64,000 nucleotides of DNA, taken from positions 9,959 through 73,958 of the forward strand of contig JACRJV010000019.1 in assembly GCA_016215325.1 (NCBI GenBank). Reading direction: 5' to 3'. Source of the DNA: Candidatus Uhrbacteria bacterium. Lineage in GTDB: Bacteria; Patescibacteriota; Patescibacteriia; JACRJV01. The first letter of the stretch is position 1, and each line of letters starts with the position of its first letter. This document shows positions 277-62,882 of this stretch, in pieces. Made by a program: the position numbers and the translations under genes. The notes below the pieces were generated by a model. The model did no database searches and was not told the DNA's origin. It was given only the letters and a program-made list of their open reading frames with translations.

Positions 277-1524
277 TCAATGTATTCTGTCAACACCCAA
301 TACTAAATTCGGATTGACATCGAGTTTCTTCCACGGCGTGAATTGTTTTTTGAGTGCATGGAAGTATCCGGCAATCGCGATCATGACGGCGTTGTCGGTG
401 CAGAACGAAGGTATTGGTAATTGGTAATTAGTAATTGGTAATTCGCGAGCAACAGCCGCCGCGAGTTGCTCACGAAGTTGTTTGTTGGCGGCCACGCCAC
501 CGGCGAGAATGACTGTTTTAATCTTGTATTCTTTTGCCGCGCGTATTGTTTTTGCCACCAGTACATCAACGACAGCTTTTTGGAAACTGGCGCAGATATC
601 CGCAACAACAACAGGAGTTAGCTTGTAGCTTTTAGCTTGTAGCGTCGTCACCCTACCAGCTAATTTCCTAATTTCCAATTCTTTTACCTTGTAGAGCACC
701 GCCGTCTTAATCCCGGAAAAACTAAAATCATAATCATTGCTCTTGATCATCGGGGCGCTGAAAGGGAACACGGTCGGGTCGCCACTTTCTGCAAGACGCG
801 AGACCACCGGCCCTCCCGGATACTCTAACCCCAAAATCTTTGCCACTTTATCAAACGCTTCTCCCACCGCATCATCGCGCGTGGCTCCGATGATTTTATA
901 ACCCAACGGTTTTTTCATGAGCACAAGCTCTGTGTGACCGCCCGAGACGACGAGGGCCAGGGCGGGATAGGGTATGGGGGTTAGGGTATGGGGGTTAGGG
1001 TCGGTTTTCACGCCTAAACCCTGGACCCTGAACCCTATACCCTTTCGCTGCAGCCAGGCTGCAGCGATGTGTCCTTCCATGTGGTTGACCGCCACCAACG
1101 GAATCTTCCATGCCCACGCGAGGGTCCGCGCTGTTTCGACGCCGACCATCAACGAGGTGATCAGCCCTGGGCCATAGGTGACTGCAATGGCATCGATCGG
1201 GGGTTTTGTATTTAGTATTTTGTATTTAGTATTTGTTTCGGATTTCGGATTTCGAATTTCGGATTTTCGCCCTGCTGAGACGAGCGCCTTCTCCACTACC
1301 GGAATAATCTTCTCTACATGCTCCCGCGCTGCCACCTCCGGCACCACCCCACCGGTCTTCCGGTGTGTCGCAATCTGCGAATGCACGACATTGGAAAGAA
1401 TTTTCACGTCAATATTCCCCGACCAAAGGCTCCGTCGAGACGGGGCCTGCGTGGAGGGGCTCGAAAATTCGAGTACCGCCGCAGCCGTCTCATCGCAACT
1501 GGTTTCAATCCCAAGAATTCTCAT
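277..1524 (-). CDS. tsaD: tRNA N6-adenosine threonylcarbamoyltransferase TsaD (Kae1/Gcp), with four in-frame repeat insertions
   Basis: MRILGIETSCDETAAAV..., GGVVPEVAAREH, HMEGH, VVSGGH, AFDKVAKILGLEYPGGP and FCTDNAVMIA motifs. The track ORF starts earlier (1593); the conserved start MRIL is at 1524. The protein is about 75 aa longer than typical TsaD because of four low-complexity insertions. Confidence 0.9.
   Translation of the reverse strand: MRILGIETSCDETAAAVLEFSSPSTQAPSRRSLWSGNIDVKILSNVVHSQIATHRKTGGVVPEVAAREHVEKIIPVVEKALVSAGRKSEIRNPKSETNTKYKILNTKPPIDAIAVTYGPGLITSLMVGVETARTLAWAWKIPLVAVNHMEGHIAAAWLQRKGIGFRVQGLGVKTDPNPHTLTPIPYPALALVVSGGHTELVLMKKPLGYKIIGATRDDAVGEAFDKVAKILGLEYPGGPVVSRLAESGDPTVFPFSAPMIKSNDYDFSFSGIKTAVLYKVKELEIRKLAGRVTTLQAKSYKLTPVVVADICASFQKAVVDVLVAKTIRAAKEYKIKTVILAGGVAANKQLREQLAAAVARELPITNYQLPIPSFCTDNAVMIAIAGYFHALKKQFTPWKKLDVNPNLVLGVDRIH
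410..447. repeat. Tandem repeat GGTAATT(A/G)GTAATTGG inside tsaD (encodes ...LPITNYQLPIP...)
   Basis: The string ggtattggtaattggtaattagtaattggtaattcg is visible; it is an in-frame insertion relative to the conserved TsaD C-terminal FCTDN region. Confidence 0.6.
618..690. repeat. Tandem repeat AGCTTGTAGC / TAATTTCC inside tsaD (encodes ...LQAKSYKLTPVV...)
   Basis: gttagcttgtagcttttagcttgtagcg followed by taatttcctaatttccaatt. The coding frame is maintained. Confidence 0.55.
964..1043. repeat. Palindromic repeat (GGGTATGGGGGTTAGGGT x2 ... CTAAACCCTGGACCCTGAACCCTATACCC) inside tsaD
   Basis: Two GT-rich direct copies are followed by their approximate reverse complement. It translates in frame as GIGFRVQGLGVKTDPNPHTLTPIPYP, inserted between the HMEGH and VVSGGH motifs. 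Confidence 0.65.
1203..1268. repeat. Tandem repeat GTATTTAGTATTT / TTCGGATTTCGG inside tsaD
   Basis: gttttgtatttagtattttgtatttagtatttgtttcggatttcggatttcgaatttcggatttt. It translates in frame as ...SEIRNPKSETNTKYKILNTKPP... between conserved TsaD segments. Confidence 0.65.
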
Positions 1525-8594: not shown

Positions 8595-10634
8595 ATGCCG
8601 TTTACTCTCGTTCCACCCTATCCCCCTTCTGGTGATCAACCCCGTGCGATCCAACAGCTCACAACTGGGGTCCGCTCTGGCGCCCATGATCAAGTATTGT
8701 TGGGCGTAACCGGATCCGGCAAAACCTTCACGATCGCCAATGTGATTCAATCCGTTCAAAAGCCGACATTGGTCATCGCTCACAACAAAACGTTGGCCGC
8801 ACAACTCACGCAAGAGTTCCGTACGTTCTTCCCCAACAATGCGGTGGAATACTTTGTCTCGTATTATGACTATTACCAACCAGAGGCCTACCTCCCATCC
8901 ACGGATACCTACATAGAAAAAGAGACGCAAATCAATGAGGAGATTGATCGCCTCCGCCATGCGGCCACCACCGCCATAATGACCCGCACCGACGTGATTG
9001 TCGTGGCCACGGTCTCCTGTATCTACAGTCTCGGCTCCCCAAATGAATACAAAAAAATGCTGATTGGGCTCGTGGTCGGCCAGCCGACTGAACGCCAAGC
9101 ATTGTTAGAACAATTGATTACGCTGCATTACACCCGCAACGATATTCTCAAACGCGGCTGCTTCCGGGCCAAAGGGGAATTATTCGAACTCATGCTGCCA
9201 GACAAAGAACAGATCATCCGCGTTGACTTGAGTGGCGGCGTGGTGCGCTCGATCGAGGTGTTTGATGCCGTGAGCCGCGCACAGCGCGAAAGCGTCCAAC
9301 AGCTGCTCGTGTTCCCGGCCAAGCATTTTGTGGTCGCCGAAGGAGTCAAGGAGGCGGCACTCCAGGCCATCGAACAAGAACTCAACCAACGCCTGGCTAC
9401 TCTCGACAAAGAGGGTAAGTTGTTGGAAGCCGAACGCCTCAAACGCCGCACGCGCTATGATCTGGCTATGATCCGAGAGATCGGTTATTGTAGTGGAATT
9501 GAAAATTACTCGCGCTATTTGTCTGCTCGGCCGCCTGGCAGTCCTCCGTACACACTCGTGGATTATTTCCCCAAAGATTTTTTGATGGTGATCGATGAGT
9601 CCCACGTGACGGTCCCTCAAATCGGCGGCATGTATGCCGGGGATCGCAGCCGCAAACAAACATTGGTCGAGCACGGGTTCCGCCTGCCCTCGGCGCTGGA
9701 CAACCGACCGCTCCAATTTAGCGAATTCGAAGAGCGCATGCCGCAGACAATTTACACCAGTGCCACACCGGGGAAGTATGAGCTTGGCAAGACGAGTCCC
9801 GCCGCAGCAGGATCCCGCACGCTGCGGGATAAGTCAAGCTCCGCCGATTCTTCATCTCTTCATCTCTTCATCTCTTCATCTCCCCTCATCATCGAGCAAA
9901 TCGTCCGCCCCACTGGCCTTGTAGACCCCGAAATTGTTCTCAAGCCCGCAGACAACCAAATCCCGGATCTTGAGAAAGAAATAGGGAAAGAAATAGAGAA
10001 TAAATGCCGGGTACTGGTGACCACGCTCACGAAAAAAATGGCAGAGGACTTGAGTGAGTATCTCCATGATCGCGGATACAAAACAAAGTATCTGCACAGC
10101 GATGTGGATACGATGGACCGAATCCGGGTGTTGGAAGACCTGCGCCGCGGCACCATCGACATCTTGATTGGTGTCAACCTGTTGCGGGAAGGGCTCGATC
10201 TCCCGGAGGTTTCGCTGGTGGCCATCTTGGATGCCGACAAAGAAGGGTTCTTGCGCAGCGACACGTCACTCATCCAAACCATGGGCCGTGCCGCCCGCAA
10301 CATCCGCGGCCGGGTGATCCTCTACGCCAATACGGTGACCGGCTCCATGAAGCGCGCCATTACCGAGACCAGCCGCCGCCGCAAAAAACAAGTCGAGTAT
10401 AACCTCGAGCATGGCATCACTCCCAAGTCCATCGAAAAGGCCATCCAATCCATTGTGGATTACGAACTCAAGCCGGAACTGCCGAGTGAATTTGTGGAGA
10501 TCGAAAAGTTCGAGGATGTCCCGGGGCTGATCAAAATAAAAATGAAAGAAGCCGCGCAGAGATTGGAGTTCGAACGGGCGGCTTTGATCAGAGATGAAGT
10601 AGTCCAATTAAAAAAACTCATCAGCACCCGATGA
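8595..10634 (+). CDS. uvrB: excinuclease ABC subunit B (UvrB) carrying a 33-aa in-frame repeat insertion
   Basis: Walker A GVTGSGKTFT, VIDESHVT, beta-hairpin region, helicase motif VI and the C-terminal UvrB-C domain (EAAQRLEFERAALIRDE). Confidence 0.95.
   Translation: MPFTLVPPYPPSGDQPRAIQQLTTGVRSGAHDQVLLGVTGSGKTFTIANVIQSVQKPTLVIAHNKTLAAQLTQEFRTFFPNNAVEYFVSYYDYYQPEAYLPSTDTYIEKETQINEEIDRLRHAATTAIMTRTDVIVVATVSCIYSLGSPNEYKKMLIGLVVGQPTERQALLEQLITLHYTRNDILKRGCFRAKGELFELMLPDKEQIIRVDLSGGVVRSIEVFDAVSRAQRESVQQLLVFPAKHFVVAEGVKEAALQAIEQELNQRLATLDKEGKLLEAERLKRRTRYDLAMIREIGYCSGIENYSRYLSARPPGSPPYTLVDYFPKDFLMVIDESHVTVPQIGGMYAGDRSRKQTLVEHGFRLPSALDNRPLQFSEFEERMPQTIYTSATPGKYELGKTSPAAAGSRTLRDKSSSADSSSLHLFISSSPLIIEQIVRPTGLVDPEIVLKPADNQIPDLEKEIGKEIENKCRVLVTTLTKKMAEDLSEYLHDRGYKTKYLHSDVDTMDRIRVLEDLRRGTIDILIGVNLLREGLDLPEVSLVAILDADKEGFLRSDTSLIQTMGRAARNIRGRVILYANTVTGSMKRAITETSRRRKKQVEYNLEHGITPKSIEKAIQSIVDYELKPELPSEFVEIEKFEDVPGLIKIKMKEAAQRLEFERAALIRDEVVQLKKLISTR
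9795..9893. repeat. Repeat element inserted in frame in uvrB (GTCCCGCCGCAGCAGGATCCCGCACGCTGCGGGA hairpin plus (TTCATCTC)x4)
   Basis: Translates as SPAAAGSRTLRDKSSSADSSSLHLFISSSPLII between the conserved TSATPGKYELGKT and EQIVRPTGLVDP. The same GTCCCGCCGCAGCGGGATCCCGC word recurs at 18575-18610. Confidence 0.6.
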
Positions 10635-13620: not shown

Positions 13621-13744
13621 AAAACTCGAAATCCGAATATCGAAATCCGAAAAAAATCTAAAATGTTTAAAATTTTTGATATTTGAATTTTACTATTGTC
13701 TCGAATTTCAAATTTCGTGCTTCGGATTTTTAATGCAGTCGACA
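13617..13744. repeat. Intercistronic palindromic repeat (CGAAATCCGAA ... TTCGGATTT family)
   Basis: cgaaatccgaatatcgaaatccgaa ... cgaatttcaaatttcgtgcttcggattttt. It is the reverse complement of the TTCGGATTTCGG word found inside tsaD. Confidence 0.6.
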
Positions 13745-15460: not shown

Positions 15461-15477
15461 ACCACCGAGTAAATTAA

Positions 15478-15535
15478 GCAAGATAAGCGAGATAAGTAAA
15501 TTAAGCGAGACACGCAAGATAAGCTATTTTTACAA
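15478..15535. repeat. Intercistronic repeat (GTAAATTAAGC / AAGATAAGCGAGATAAG family)
   Basis: taaattaagcaagataagcgagataagtaaattaagcgagacacgcaagataagc; the same words flank the 4HB gene at 62400-62882. Confidence 0.55.
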
Positions 15536-17648: not shown

Positions 17649-17700
17649 ACAAATAATGCGAATAACCATTCGTCATTCTGGCTTGGCCAGAATCCGATCT
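17649..17700. repeat. Intercistronic hairpin repeat (CGTCATTCTG...CAGAATCCG family)
   Basis: aatgcgaataaccattcgtcattctggcttggccagaatccgatc; related words at 18551-18565 and 61141-61170. Confidence 0.45.
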
Positions 17701-21184: not shown

Positions 21185-24085
21185 ATGGAAAAAATCATCG
21201 TGCGTGGTGCCAAAGAACATAACCTCAAAAATGTGAACCTCGAAATCCCTCGGGATAAGCTTATCGTATTTACCGGGATCTCGGGATCGGGTAAATCCAC
21301 CCTCGCGTTTGATACCATCTTTGCCGAAGGCCAGCGCCGCTATTTAGAATCTCTTTCTTCGTATGCCCGCCAATTTTTAGGGCAGATGAAAAAACCGGAC
21401 GTCGAATCCATCGATGGACTCTCGCCCGCAATTTCGATCGACCAAAAAACCGCATCGCATAATCCGCGATCCACTGTCGGCACCGTCACCGAAATCTACG
21501 ACTATCTGCGATTGCTGTATTCCAAGATCGGCCTCCCGCATTGCCTGGATTGCGGTCGCGCGATCCAGCAACTCACCATTGATCAGATCGTGGAGTCAAT
21601 AATCGATGAGTTCAACGGGCAAGAGGTGATGATCTTTTCCCCGGTCGTGCGCGGGCGCAAAGGCGAATATCATACTCTGCTCAACGACTTCTATCTCAAA
21701 GGGTATGCCAAAGCGCGGGTTAATGGCGCCCTGGTGGCTCTGGGGGAGCGTATTGTGTTGGATCGCTATAAAACCCACACCATCGACATATTGATGGATG
21801 CGGTCATCGCGACCGTTGAGAACATGGGTCGATTGTTTGAGGCCGTCGAATTTGCCACCGGCAATGCCGAGGGAAATGTACTTGTCGCGAGTAAATCAAG
21901 CGGGTCAAGTAAATTAAGCTTGTCGCGAACGAAGAAAAAAAACTCTCTAGAACCTAGCGCCTATAACCTAGAACCTCAAACCGAACGCCTCTATAACCTC
22001 AAACTCGCGTGCCCCTATTGCAATTTGAGTTTTCCCGAAATTGCTCCACGCCTTTTCTCTTTCAACAGCCCCTACGGCGCTTGCCCGACGTGCACGGGGT
22101 TAGGAATAAAAAAAGAAATTGATCCAGAACTGATCATCCCTGACAAAACGAAAACGATCGAAGAAGGCGGAATCCTCCCAGATTCCTACAGCCAATTTAA
22201 TTATTATGGATCGATCTTGCGCTCACTGGCGGATCACTACCACCTCCCCAGCAACCGCCGCATCAAGGACCTCCCCAAAGAAACACTCAATGCCATCCTT
22301 TATGGCGCAGAAGATCCCATTCCTCTGCGTGTCAAATACTACATGAATGGACGGCCGCGCGTCTTCAAGACTCGCTTCCCAGGACTCATCCCATTGTTAG
22401 AGGAACGCTATCAAAAAACAGAATCTGACACGGTGCGATCGGATATCGAGGCGTATATGTCCAGCTCCGATTGTCCCACGTGCCACGGAGCGCGGCTCAA
22501 ACCCGAAGCATTAGCTGTAAAAGTCAGTACCCAGTCGATTGTTGATATCGCGCAACAATCCATCGCCAGCGCATATCAGTTTTTCCAAACGCTCCCCGCG
22601 ATACTCAATGCACGGCAAACACTCATCGCCGATCGCATCCTCAAAGAAATCACCAATCGGCTCAAATTCTTAGTGAATGTCGGCTTAGAATATCTCACCC
22701 TGAGTCGCACCGCCAATACCTTGGCCGGCGGCGAAGCACAACGCATTCGCCTCGCCAGCCAAGTGGGCAGCGCCCTCACCGGCGTGCTCTATGTACTGGA
22801 TGAGCCGTCGATTGGCCTCCATAGCCGAGATAACGCCAAACTGTTAGAGACCTTAAAACACCTGCGCGATATCGGCAACACTCTGATCGTGATCGAACAT
22901 GACGAAGAAACTATGCGAGAAGCCGACTGGCTCGTGGATATCGGGCCCCGCGCGGGCAAGCACGGCGGCACGATCATCGCCAGCGGCCCTCCCGAGCAGG
23001 TGATCAAGCACCCAACATCGTTGACCGCTCAATATTTGCGCGGAGAGCGCTCAATACCAGTGCCAGAGCAACGTCGAAGGCCACGCAAAAACTCTTTAAT
23101 CATTCGCGGGGCTCGCGAACATAACCTTAAAAACATTGCGGTCGAAATCCCGCTGGGGGTGCTTGTCTGTATTACCGGTGTATCAGGCTCGGGAAAATCC
23201 ACGCTCATAGAGGATATCCTCTATCCGGCGCTGGCGAAGAAACTCCATCATGCCAACACCCGGGCGGGACTCCATACAACCATCGAAGGAATCGAACACA
23301 TTGATAAGGTCATTGTCATCGATCAATCGCCCATCGGCCGCACACCGCGCTCGAACCCCGCCACCTATACGGGGATGTTTACGCCCATCCGAGAACTATT
23401 TGCCGCCACCAAGGGGGGGCGCATCCGAGGCTATGGCCCGGGGCGGTTCAGTTTTAATGTCCGCGGCGGACGGTGCGAAGCCTGCCAAGGGGACGGCGTC
23501 CAGAAAATCGAGATGCAATTTTTGCCTGATGTGTATATCCCCTGCGATGTCTGCGCCGGCAAACGCTATACCTCTGAAACACTGGCGATTACGTACAATG
23601 ATAAAAACATTGCAGACGTCTTAGCGATGACTGTTGAAGAAGGATATCTATTTTTTAAAGATATTCCCCAAATTGCCGACAAGCTAAACATCCTTAATGA
23701 TGTCGGCTTAGGGTATATTGAGTTGGGCCAGTCCGCCACCACGCTCTCCGGCGGCGAAGCGCAACGGATTAAGCTCGCCACCGAGCTGGCGCGCCGCGCC
23801 ACCGGCAGAACATTCTACATCCTCGATGAGCCGACCACGGGCTTGCACTTTGAAGATATCCATAAGCTCCTGTCGGTGCTCGAGCGCCTGGTGGATGCCG
23901 GCAATACCGTCTTAGTGATCGAGCATCAACTCGACGTGGTCAAAACCGCGGATTGGATTATTGATCTTGGCCCCGAAGGAGGAGACAAGGGTGGCAGTAT
24001 TGTAGCCCAAGGCACGCCCGAGCAGGTCGCCAAGATGAAACAAAGTTACACGGGACAGTTTTTAAAACCTCTTCTCAAGCAATAA
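21185..24085 (+). CDS. uvrA: excinuclease ABC subunit A (UvrA) carrying an in-frame repeat insertion
   Basis: Two ABC modules ([15 protein letters not shown]; [13 protein letters not shown]), LSGGEAQRI signature twice, and zinc-finger CxxC pairs. Confidence 0.95.
21890..21985. repeat. Repeat element inserted in frame in uvrA (GTAAATCAAGCGGGTCAAGTAAATTAAGC plus TAGAACCTAG/TATAACCT words)
   Basis: Translates [31 protein letters not shown] between the conserved ...NAEGNVLVA and [13 protein letters not shown]. It shares the GTAAATTAAGC word with 15478-15535 and the 4HB flanks. Confidence 0.55.
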
Positions 24086-32962: not shown

Positions 32963-33083
32963 AGGAAATTGGTTACTGGAAATTGGAGAATAGTAATGGA
33001 ACATGGAAATTAGTGTTTGAATACGTTTCCAATCTCCATACACCAATATCTATTACCATTTTCTATTTTCTAGCAACCAGTTT
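32963..33083. repeat. Intercistronic palindromic repeat (GGAAATTGG / TAATGG words and complement)
   Basis: ggaaattggttactggaaattggagaatagtaatggaacatggaaattag ... tttccaatctccatacaccaatatctattaccattttc. Confidence 0.5.
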
Positions 33084-35454
<2,371 letters not shown>

Positions 35455-36974: not shown

Positions 36975-37053
36975 AACGATAGAATTTAGAGTCCAGAATT
37001 TAGAATCTAGATTTTTGAACGGTCCCGTTCCTAACTTCTAGATTCGAGATTCT
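36975..37053. repeat. Intercistronic palindromic repeat (AGAATTTAGAATCTAGA ... TTCTAGATTCGAGATTCT)
   Basis: Visible inverted repeat between atpA and atpH. Confidence 0.5.
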
Positions 37054-38092: not shown

Positions 38093-38144
38093 TTAGGGTA
38101 TAGCGTTTAGTTCTAAACGCTGACCGCTAAACCCTAGACCCTTT
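38093..38144. repeat. Intercistronic palindromic repeat (TTAGGGTATAGCGTTTAG ... CTAAACCCTAGACCC)
   Basis: Shares GGGTAT/CTAAACCC words with the tsaD 964-1043 insertion. Confidence 0.5.
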
Positions 38145-39143: not shown

Positions 39144-39245
39144 ATTAACGGGAATTACGAATCATGAATAATGAATCATGGATTTTTTGTATCGTGCCCT
39201 GATTCCTTATTCCCAATTCCTGATTCCTGCGACATTTCCTTCGTA
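39144..39245. repeat. Repeat (GAATCATGAATAATGAATCATGG ... TGATTCCTTATTCCCAATTCCTGATTCC) overlapping the atpZ 3' end
   Basis: Tandem/inverted low-complexity words are visible; the atpZ-like C-terminus reads through part of it. Confidence 0.45.
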
Positions 39246-43648: not shown

Positions 43649-46758
<3,110 letters not shown>

Positions 46759-46793
46759 ATTAAAAGGCATGGAATACATCTATTCTCTTCAGT

Positions 46794-46920
46794 GTGGTCT
46801 TGGTGATCTCAAGCGGCATGGAACCACCTCTTCCCATCCCGAACAGAGTCGTGAAACGTGCCAGCACCGATGATACTTGGGTTAAACCAAGCCCTGGGAA
46901 CGTAGGCCATTGCCAAGACC
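46794..46920 (+). rRNA. rrf: 5S ribosomal RNA
   Basis: CCCATCCCGAACAGAGTCGTGAAACGTGCCAGCACCGATGATACTTGGG... with complementary ends tggtcttggtga / ccattgccaagacc. Confidence 0.8.
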
Positions 46921-49254: not shown

Positions 49255-49343
49255 AAAACTAGTATATGGTATGAGGTATAGGGTATAAAGTATACGCCGA
49301 AATCATTAGGAAACGTCGCGCGGTATACCTTATACTTAATACC
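49255..49343. repeat. Intercistronic palindromic repeat (GTATAGGGTATAAAGTATAC ... GTATACCTTATACTTAATACCTTATACC)
   Basis: Inverted repeat of GGTAT/ATACC-rich words between trxB and the glutaredoxin-like gene. Confidence 0.5.
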
Positions 49344-49610
49344 TTATACCCCGATACCAAGTGCGCTTGCCAACGCCGACTGATCAAACCCGATAATTAA
49401 TTGCTCATTGCCGCCATCTTCGTCCGAGATGGCAATCACCGGTACCCCCATTTGACCAGACTTATTAATCATTTCATCGGCCGCCGATTGATCGATCGCC
49501 ACATCTTTTTCAATGTAGGCGATGTTATTATCCTTAAAATAGGCCTTTGCCATCTTGCAATAGCCGCAGGTCGGGGTGGTGTAAATTATAACCTTCTTCA
49601 TATTTGCCAA
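49344..49610 (-). CDS. glutaredoxin-like (NrdH/YruB-type) small redox protein
   Basis: VIIYTTPTCGYCKMAKAYF (CxxC), ...GVPVIAI... Confidence 0.65.
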   Translation of the reverse strand: MANMKKVIIYTTPTCGYCKMAKAYFKDNNIAYIEKDVAIDQSAADEMINKSGQMGVPVIAISDEDGGNEQLIIGFDQSALASALGIGV

Positions 49611-61122: not shown

Positions 61123-61265
61123 TGCGAGCCGCAGAGAAGCGATCCAGATCGGATTCTGGATAAGACCAGAATGACGAGAAAAAGAAAAGGCTCCGGGCGA
61201 TGCATGCGTGGATACAGAGCGCCCGGAGACCTTGAAGTTGGTTTGAATCGTTGGCCGTGCGAGGC

Positions 61266-62399: not shown

Positions 62400-62459
62400 A
62401 CCTTATTACGAGCAAGATAAGCGAGATAAGCAAGACAAGTAAATTAAGCACGACATGCT
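62400..62459. repeat. Left inverted repeat flanking the 4HB gene (AAGATAAGCGAGATAAGCAAGACAAGTAAATTAAGC)
   Basis: Its reverse complement is found at 62836-62882. Confidence 0.6.
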
Positions 62460-62834
62460 ATGGGAAACATTCATTCATTCCGCGACCTTTTAGTCTGGCA
62501 AAAAGCACACCAGTTGGTGCTGGAAATATATCGTCTTACCAAGAAATTCCCTTCGAACGAAATGTTTGGCTTAGTCTCTCAGATCCGTAGGGCCACAGTC
62601 TCCGTTGCTTCCAACATCGTAGAAGGCTTTAACCGCTCCAGTGTTCAAGACAGTCTGCATTTCTACACCATGGCCCATGCGTCACTCGAGGAAGTAAAAT
62701 ATCAGCTGCTCGTCGCCCGTGACTTGCAGTACATTACTCAACAAGAATACAATCATACACTTTGTTTAGGAGAAGAAGTGAGTAAATTATTGCGATCCTG
62801 GATCAATAGCCAGAAAGAGAATACGAAGGCGTAA
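62460..62834 (+). CDS. four-helix-bundle protein (23S rRNA intervening-sequence protein / Avd family)
   Basis: FRDLLVWQKAHQLVLEIYRLTKKFP...EMFGLVSQIRRATVSVASNIVEGF...HFYTMAHASLEEVKYQLLVARDL is the classic family pattern. Confidence 0.85.
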   Translation: MGNIHSFRDLLVWQKAHQLVLEIYRLTKKFPSNEMFGLVSQIRRATVSVASNIVEGFNRSSVQDSLHFYTMAHASLEEVKYQLLVARDLQYITQQEYNHTLCLGEEVSKLLRSWINSQKENTKA

Positions 62835-62835
62835 C

Positions 62836-62882
62836 GGCTTAATTTACTTATCTTGCTTATCTCGCTTAATTTACTTCGTATG
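62836..62882. repeat. Right inverted repeat flanking the 4HB gene (GCTTAATTTACTTATCTTGCTTATCTCGCTTAATTTAC)
   Basis: Near-perfect reverse complement of 62405-62452. Confidence 0.6.

Follow-up and report, generated by a model that had tools for sequence, protein, structure and literature searches.

Heptanucleotide repeat DNA was found in frame within tsaD, an essential gene in most bacteria, in a 64,000-nt stretch of a metagenome-assembled Candidatus Uhrbacteria bacterium genome (contig JACRJV010000019.1, positions 9,959 to 73,958; hereafter the window, GC content 45-55%). The extra DNA of this gene is probably made of heptanucleotide long simple-sequence repeats (SSRs; approximately 4-4.5 units, ~30 nt) that are part of a genome-wide population and were formed and homogenized in situ, a reading given a probability of about 0.6. 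Reiterative copying in place and concerted evolution are favored over a fixed mobile sequence because the same hot spots carry different units, the same base changes throughout an array, and the units often run in phase with the flanking codons. The repeat class itself is known, and the new aspect is its in-frame concentration in an essential gene with clear concerted evolution.

The gene was delimited as follows:

277..1524, minus strand: tsaD coding sequence, 415 aa, ATG at 1524-1522 (start context MRILGIETSCDE) and TGA at 279-277

A first-pass annotation of the same DNA had described an intact tsaD with its conserved blocks, which was confirmed by the open reading frame (ORF), the Pfam profile, and the structure matches. 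The blocks MRILGIETSCDETA, HMEGH, VVSGGH, and FCTDNAVMIA were all identified in the 415-aa translation, and membership of the TsaD/Kae1/Qri7 family (PF00814, E = 1.5e-85) was supported by full-length matches to the profile and to solved structures including the best match Thermotoga TsaD 6nak_B (E = 2.5e-69) as well as TsaD from E. coli and Salmonella. The metal-binding His-x3-His, the Asp of the C-T-D-N motif, and the GGH/VSGGH nucleotide-binding block were all kept, and H148, H152, S194-G195-H197, D377, and N378 were invariant across 120 homologues. An AlphaFold (AF2) model displayed a mean predicted local distance difference test score (pLDDT) of 91.2 and a predicted template modeling score (pTM) of 0.91. 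The closest TsaD proteins were from Patescibacteria/Candidate Phyla Radiation (CPR) metagenome bins, with Candidatus Uhrbacteria among the named matches.

Compared with canonical TsaD, the product has ~75 additional residues. The AlphaFold model and alignments with Thermotoga TsaD and insert-free homologues assigned this added length to aa 21-38, 87-108, 160-186, and 283-303, which coincided with gaps against the solved TsaD structures and were the sole internal low-confidence stretches of the model (10-residue pLDDT means of 61-76). In the model, the four inserts are low-confidence loops at permissive sites between conserved elements of an intact TsaD ORF. The first-pass annotation was therefore correct in counting four insertions and ~75 extra residues and in expecting insertions to map to loops, but one of its four segments, 410-447, adds no residues, having the same length as in insert-free homologues and encoding a core strand (366-368 at pLDDT 97), while the insertion at aa 21-38 had been overlooked.

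Tandem Repeats Finder (TRF) and inspection of the extra segments gave the following features, with units on the plus strand unless marked as sense:

1411..1464, minus strand: extra segment 1 (aa 21-38), GC-rich imperfect hairpin DNA with no heptamer array
1236..1266, minus strand: array in the first half of extra segment 2 (aa 87-108), TTTCGGA x4.4, sense AAATCCG
1204..1234, minus strand: array in the second half of extra segment 2, TTTAGTA x4.4, sense AAATACT/AAATACA, TRF period 14 with 100% match
1013..1043, minus strand: array in extra segment 3 (aa 160-186), CCTAAAC x4.4, sense GGGTnnA, 5' arm of a hairpin
964..1001, minus strand: 14-mer array in extra segment 3, GGGTTAGGGTATGG x2.7, sense CCCTAACCCCCATA, 3' arm of the same hairpin
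660..680, minus strand: weak octamer repeat, CTAATTTC x2.8, giving ELEIRKL where helix 270-290 ends
619..643, minus strand: array in extra segment 4 (aa ~283-303), TAGCTTG x3.6, sense AAGCTAC, pLDDT 65 at aa 291-300
413..443, minus strand: core-strand array, ATTGGTA x4.4, sense ATTACCA, encoding LPITNYQLPI before FCTDNA (LPITNYQLPIP for the whole of 410-447)

Six heptamer or 14-mer arrays thus lie in frame in tsaD with a typical size of ~31 nt and ~4.4 units, and the predicted peptide stretches derived from arrays include KSEIRNPKSETNTKYKILNTK, GIGFRVQGLGVKTDPNPHTLTPIPYP, and LQAKSYKLTP. The array at 1236-1266 is unstructured as RNA and encodes residues at pLDDT 61-76, the array at 1013-1043 holds a G3N4 x4 motif, the 14-mer array at 964-1001 passes straight into conserved Tyr-Pro codons (TAT CCC), and a short inverted copy TTAGCTGGTAG lies upstream of the array at 619-643. 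Extra segment 1 displayed a weak RNA fold (segment 1400-1470, -23.8 kcal/mol, z = -1.6) with pLDDT 66 at aa 21-30, and its site in the N-terminal loop is occupied by octamer arrays in the relatives P0003, P0004, P0006, and P0008. The inserted DNA had been described as tandem or palindromic repeats, of which the tandem part was upheld by the 7-nt arrays called by TRF and the palindromic part applies to a single case. The only strong hairpin in tsaD was the fold of 955-1050 that pairs 964-1043 (-39.3 kcal/mol, z = -4.0), with 610-695 folding weakly (z = -1.9) and 1195-1275 and 400-455 being unstructured (z = +0.8 and +1.0, respectively). As only this pair folds into a strong hairpin, the feature common to the segments is 7-nt periodicity and not palindromy.

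A lag-autocorrelation scan of the window against shuffled sequences revealed the same period. At a threshold of at least 17/21 lag matches, seven lag-7 and five lag-14 segments were identified compared to none in the shuffles and 0-2 at other non-multiple lags, and at a laxer threshold of 14/21 the window contained 15 lag-7 segments vs. 1.4 in the shuffles. At the latter threshold, five of the six coding period-7 arrays of the window fell in tsaD within ~2.3% of the coding DNA (binomial estimate ~4e-8), which substantiated the suggestion of an unusual in-frame density in one essential gene. At least nine different units were present among the ~15 arrays of the 64 kb, and the loops differed even between copies of the same unit. 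The ~15 arrays therefore support the in situ reading in that period 7 is specific, the units share no element-like consensus, and no terminal duplications accompany them.

Orthologous sites were compared using tsaD DNA from eight relatives (55-73% amino acid identity) and ~90 more distant, mostly CPR, loci, and the window tsaD was codon-aligned with the relatives. The comparison proposed in the first-pass annotation, presence or absence of fixed inserts, gave a different outcome, as the relatives carry arrays at the same hot spots with other units. Two orthologous sites held a period-7 array in every close relative. Before FCTDNA the units were AATTACC (window), ACTTACC (P0002), GCTTACC (P0006), TTATACC (P0003), AAATACC (P0004, P0007, and P0008), and AGATTCC (P0009), and before Y/F-P-A-L they were CCTAACC/CCCATAC (window and P0002), ATTACCA (P0003), AATATCC (P0004 and P0007), TATAAGC (P0006), GAACCTA (P0008), and CCAGTTA (P0009). 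The window and P0002 differed by one A/C change at the same position of all units of one array, and the 14-mer of 964-1001 was common to P0002 with a C-to-T change in both copies. Because the changed base hits all three codon positions, the arrays evolve in concert at the DNA level and not by selection on the protein. The units also frequently run in phase into the conserved F/Y-Pro codons (AATATCC followed by AATATCCCGCG and CAATTCC followed by CAATTCCCAATG), for example with three AATATCC units leading into CGCG and three CAATTCC units into CAATG. In 24 array-bearing genes, the conserved 5 nt matched the bases 7 nt upstream at 1.96/5 positions compared to 1.15/5 for other lags (Wilcoxon p = 0.003). 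Further tsaD loops of P0002, P0003, P0004, and P0006 contained CGTCAT-tagged hairpins of the CGTC type of repetitive extragenic palindromic (REP) sequence, and the presence of these unrelated hairpins identifies the tsaD loops as permissive sites with a fast turnover of content.

The core-strand array has a history of its own. Most CPR TsaD proteins carry E-L-P-x-T/V-x-L-F-I-P ahead of C-T-D-N, in which two "hydrophobic-Pro" codon pairs are spaced 21 nt apart, and in the clade of the window the sequence between these pairs consists of three further copies of the same heptamer. Such copies arose independently in the loci L098, L095, and L143/L155. The resulting (L/I)PxTxYx(L/I)P peptide is TTACCNN read in three frames, with length and predicted structure unchanged.

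Across 104 tsaD genes, 75 period-7 arrays were detected vs. eight of period 8, one each of periods 9 and 5, and none of period 6, and all 104 ORFs were intact despite the arrays. These concentrated in five alignment hot spots at core positions ~73, 132-139 (41 arrays), ~205, ~240, and 299-306. After removal of duplicate loci (~101 tsaD genes vs. ~5.5 times more flanking DNA), tsaD retained 68 arrays (0.53 per kb) compared to 29 in the flanks (0.04 per kb; 14 in other ORFs and 15 intergenic). Array length in the 526 kb of pooled loci was bimodal with a second mode at 27-32 nt that persisted in the 85 of 91 arrays lacking G3/C3 tracts, and an inverted partner accompanied 13 of the 91. The sense strand of coding arrays was A-rich (43-52%) and G-poor (10%), alike in tsaD and other genes. 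Among the matches listed, period-7 arrays and heptamer-armed hairpins also occurred in loci from Acidobacteriota (Pyrinomonadaceae), Chloroflexota, Nitrospirales, and Desulfobacterota, with the following heptamer-armed inverted pairs or long arrays:

L055, 1850-1936, 3869-3954, and 10539-10643
L040, 15726-15823
L080, 8722-8892
L014, 1361-1471

Such pairs and arrays were common in the loci from Pyrinomonadaceae, Desulfacyla, and Chloroflexia, which extends the phenomenon well beyond cyanobacteria, Xanthomonas, and the CPR, and a search of the literature for heptamer arrays in CPR/Patescibacteria returned no report.

Under the in situ reading, a 7-nt seed, in many cases formed by the native codons next to the array, would be copied reiteratively in steps of 7 nt through template switching or through slippage during replication or repair, a snap-back copy would at times yield an inverted partner arm, and the arrays would afterwards evolve in concert. 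Within coding DNA, an array would persist only at positions that the protein can tolerate and only in the A-rich/G-poor orientation, which is free of stops. The tolerant places of TsaD would be four surface loops and the one strand whose native 21-nt-spaced "hydrophobic-Pro" codons may allow its "heptamerization" at constant length. We infer this copying mechanism, the translation of the inserts as disordered loops, and the neutrality of the arrays. Several observations weigh against this reading. A slip of one 7-nt unit shifts the frame of an ORF, so that in-frame growth requires either the simultaneous gain of three units or compensated events; the lengths of the arrays do not follow a geometric distribution, and their 27-32 nt peak hints at a length-setting process or selection beyond simple slippage; the units AAATCCG, ATTACCA, GAACCTA, and AAATCAA are seen again in genomes and at sites that are unrelated; the flank-phase signal is real but modest; and the 13- to 25-fold enrichment of tsaD over the flanks is more than neutrality alone explains. 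Simple slippage thus leaves unexplained the fixed ~30 nt length, the keeping of frame with 7-nt steps, and the preference for tsaD. A further reading, of rather small likelihood, is that CPR bacteria and others from the environment have a dedicated seed-templated process that writes heptamer arrays of fixed length (~4.4 units, ~30 nt) together with their inverted copies, with tsaD as preferred target or selected carrier. If true, the arrays could serve as hypervariable surface loops or cis-RNA elements, and the process would overwrite even a structured strand, LPxTxYxLP being TTACCNN in three frames.

Related repeats were distributed elsewhere in the window, including five intergenic heptamer-armed hairpins:

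13627..13729, minus strand: intergenic hairpin, heptamer arms of the CGAAATC/GATTTCG family, ending 6 nt upstream of the prephenate dehydrogenase start
36980..37053, minus strand: intercistronic hairpin, heptamer arms of the TAGAATT family, 5 nt upstream of atpA
38093..38144, minus strand: GGGTnTA/CTAAACC-family hairpin that directly adjoins the start codon of the gene for the ATP synthase b subunit
39152..39229, minus strand: hairpin with heptamer arms GAATCAT/ATTCCTG upstream of atpB (a subunit), z = -3.6
49262..49350, minus strand: hairpin with arms GGTATAn/TATACCn, 7 nt before a thioredoxin-reductase-like gene, -39.1 kcal/mol, z = -5.3

All five lie between co-directional genes (z = -1.9 to -5.3), three of them within the ATP synthase operon, and their 3' arms end 0-7 nt ahead of the next start codon. 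Their probable role, judged from the REPs, is that of hairpins in the mRNA. The first-pass observation that tsaD repeat words recur in spacers was borne out, with the TTTCGGA family at 13632-13652 and the GGGTnTA family at 38124-38141 and 49267-49291 against a chance expectation of 0-0.1. Other repeats were located in coding sequences or were of the tagged palindromic type:

21947..21976, plus strand: heptamer array CTAGAAC x4.3, in frame within uvrA in the stretch separating the UvrA interaction domain from the DNA-binding domain
9849-9882: perfect octamer TCTTCATC x4.2, in frame within uvrB in the stretch separating the interaction domain from the helicase-C domain
34824-34859: in-frame octamer array in atpG (ATP synthase gamma)
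17671-17698, plus strand, and 61149-61176, minus strand: CGTCAT-tagged short palindromes, CGTC ATTCTGGC TTG GCCAGAAT CCG and a variant

The last two palindromes have the architecture of CGTC-type REPs, a superfamily including the short Rickettsia palindromic elements (RPEs) RPE-4 and RPE-6.

Several further observations were made in the window. A Shine-Dalgarno-like motif (loose, -18 to -4) preceded just nine of 56 long ORFs, and the DNA ahead of most ORF starts was A/T-rich or was a heptamer-armed hairpin immediately next to the start, which suggests from the sequence that translation initiation in this organism may be Shine-Dalgarno-independent. The gap between atpD and atpC carries a 20-nt-period repeat and weak heptamer repeats (32964-33014 and 33043-33080); as the Pfam domain of atpC starts only at residue 30, the TTG start at 33046 has probably been placed too far upstream, and these repeats (32964-33080) are therefore likely intercistronic. 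The ORF at 62460-62834 encodes a 124-aa "23S rRNA intervening sequence protein"/bAvd-like product (PF05635, 2.1e-37) and has an inverted nonamer array on either side, AGCAAGATA x4.4 upstream (62411-62450) and the complement CTTATCTCG x2.4 downstream (62847-62868), with a near-identical nonamer array at the aroB/aroC junction (15468-15524); this arrangement could represent either a further class of repeat or a small cassette. The 23S rRNA gene (43650-46759) measures 3110 nt vs. a 2925-position model, i.e., ~185 nt extra, and is followed by the 5S (46799-46918), with no 16S directly ahead of the 23S in the window; the 23S and 5S genes contained no period-7 arrays. A tsaD-specific enrichment of ANN codons by the A-rich arrays as an autoregulatory link to N6-threonylcarbamoyladenosine (t6A) was also considered and rejected, the ANN fraction being 0.51 for arrays in other ORFs vs. 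0.43 for those in tsaD.

The closest known counterpart is the heptameric long SSR class that includes the cyanobacterial short tandemly repeated repetitive (STRR) sequences, the Xanthomonas/Nostoc GGGNATC repeats, and the Beggiatoaceae/cyanobacterial TAACTGA repeats (MacGregor, 2015; PMC4679880). Heptamers are the over-represented long SSR in many bacteria, and those of Xanthomonas and Nostoc prefer four units and lie close to ORF starts or ends, often as inverted pairs (Rehm et al., 2015; PMC4692102), with polymerase slippage proposed as their origin (PMC4692102; PMC4679880). The class and the present repeats have in common tandem 7-nt units, about four units per array, many dispersed loci within a few to ~50 nt of ORF starts or ends, frequent convergent (inverted) pairs that can form stem-loops, unit and length variation among close relatives, and occasional copies in ORFs or RNA genes. 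Over-representation of the 7-nt unit against other sizes, the approximately four units, the near-start placement, and the inverted pairs were all found here. The differences are the CPR host and the many, mostly non-G-rich units within one genome, so that the four-unit mode is not attributable to G-quadruplex formation, an explanation rejected as only 6 of 91 arrays contain G3/C3 tracts. Known heptamer families are also located at protein termini or are under-represented in coding DNA, as reported for Xanthomonas and Nostoc, whereas the present arrays are concentrated at conserved hot spots of a single essential enzyme gene, keep its frame, and in one case encode a structured core strand. In coding DNA other than tsaD, arrays are indeed sparse. 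A second parallel is with slippage-derived low-complexity inserts in conserved proteins of genomes with a biased composition, e.g., the Asn/Lys-rich inserts of Plasmodium proteins, which arise mostly from 3-nt codon or homopolymer repeats. Both involve A-rich codon tracts giving hydrophilic, disordered, fast-evolving, and probably near-neutral loops that separate conserved blocks of housekeeping enzymes, but the DNA period here is 7 nt, and a 7-nt unit read in all three frames yields a 7-aa peptide period such as LPITNYQ.

The first-pass annotation had interpreted the inserts as dispersed elements that landed in the ORF in the manner of RPEs. GTAG/CGTC-tagged REPs are short imperfect palindromes that have a 3-bp tail and carry the unpaired tag at one end, and the short RPE-4 and RPE-6 are CGTC-tagged palindromes with an 8-9-bp stem and a 4-5-nt loop, RPE-1 being a longer palindrome (Di Nocera et al., 2013; PMC3733652). 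The behavior is similar in that short repeats stand in frame in conserved genes including uvrA and uvrB, presumably at permissive surface sites, and that intergenic copies occur between co-directional genes as RNA hairpins. Membership of the RPEs did not hold up, as the host is a CPR bacterium (~49-52% GC) and not Rickettsia and the tsaD inserts, which are heptamer arrays of 25-38 nt, lack, when compared with RPEs by description, a family consensus, a CGTC/GTAG tag, and a stem of 8-9 bp closed by a 4-5-nt loop. The majority do not form palindromes, a single pair folding strongly against two weak and two unstructured segments, and the evidence favors local generation over transposition. The RPE analogy is therefore valid for the tsaD loop sites and not for the inserts of the window itself. 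Transposition into tsaD of small mobile palindromic elements (RPE, REP, or like MITEs, which are miniature transposable elements with inverted repeats), kept because the frame was preserved, would account for the two tsaD unit families elsewhere in the window, the one strong hairpin, and the recurrence of some units across genomes, and it draws on the true CGTCAT-tagged REP-like hairpins in the same loops of relatives and at two other places in the window as well as on documented intragenic REPs and RPEs, notably in uvrA and uvrB (PMC3733652). This origin is nevertheless unlikely, as the consensus between inserts is limited to the 7-nt unit size, the inserts have no tags, terminal inverted repeats, or target duplications, most tsaD arrays are unstructured single arrays with an inverted partner in only 13 of 91, the array at 413-443 replaces core sequence at unchanged length, and units vary at orthologous sites and change in concert. 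MITEs are 70-300 bp with terminal inverted repeats and target site duplications, whereas the segments measure 25-80 nt and have neither at their boundaries. Landing of dispersed copies in the ORF is likewise doubtful given the at least nine units, the differing loops, and the different units at orthologous sites.

The arrays might instead be selected cis-acting nucleic acid elements within the coding sequence that regulate tsaD expression or mRNA fate, as sites for a protein reading 7-nt repeats, G-quadruplex or hairpin switches, or unstructured C-rich/G-poor RNA tracts. Such a role would fit with the sharp 27-32 nt length mode irrespective of unit, the strong enrichment in tsaD, the G-poor sense strand (10% G) in tsaD and other ORFs, and intergenic copies abutting start codons in a genome nearly devoid of Shine-Dalgarno motifs; TAACTGA repeats of the Beggiatoaceae are similarly placed and were proposed as regulator-binding sites (PMC4679880), and the GGGTnnA arms match the G3N4 quadruplex motif (PMC4692102). 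It is held to be improbable because the units are very diverse even within one orthologous site, which disfavors a sequence-specific reader, close relatives carry unrelated REP-like hairpins in place of arrays in the same loops, G3/C3 tracts occur in only 6 of 91 arrays, and no candidate binding protein was identified. Phase variation, with gain or loss of 7-nt units switching t6A synthesis off and on, has precedents in heptamer SSRs elsewhere, e.g., Haemophilus, and five to six arrays per gene would lift the frameshift rate. However, 104 of 104 tsaD genes are in frame, the arrays are short (~4 units) and mostly imperfect, and TsaD is essential in most bacteria, so that a contingency locus is very improbable; the identity of three assemblies of P0002 and of two of P0008 is a weak point in the same direction, as each set possibly represents one population. 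That the repeats are assembly or sequencing artefacts has a next to negligible likelihood. The window derives from a metagenome-assembled genome in which repeats can be mis-assembled, but the gene has an uninterrupted reading frame, the independent relative P0002 has kept, with substitutions, both the hairpin insert and the array at the ATTACCA site, the three assemblies of P0002 give identical sequence, and dozens of independent assemblies carry arrays at the same hot spots.

With local formation and homogenization as the preferred reading, a normally essential and universal enzyme can hold five to six non-triplet arrays in frame, which provides a natural map of the permissive sites of TsaD. 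The case ties a DNA process in 7-nt register to protein evolution in the form of 7-residue periods, loops of fast turnover, and a "heptamerized" core strand. A four-unit preference with non-G-rich units challenges the G-quadruplex explanation put forward for the Xanthomonas and Nostoc repeats and suggests that the length of heptameric repeats is set by a more general mechanism. For the annotation of CPR genomes, long "insertions" or 7-residue-periodic hypothetical proteins may often be repeat DNA and not functional domains.

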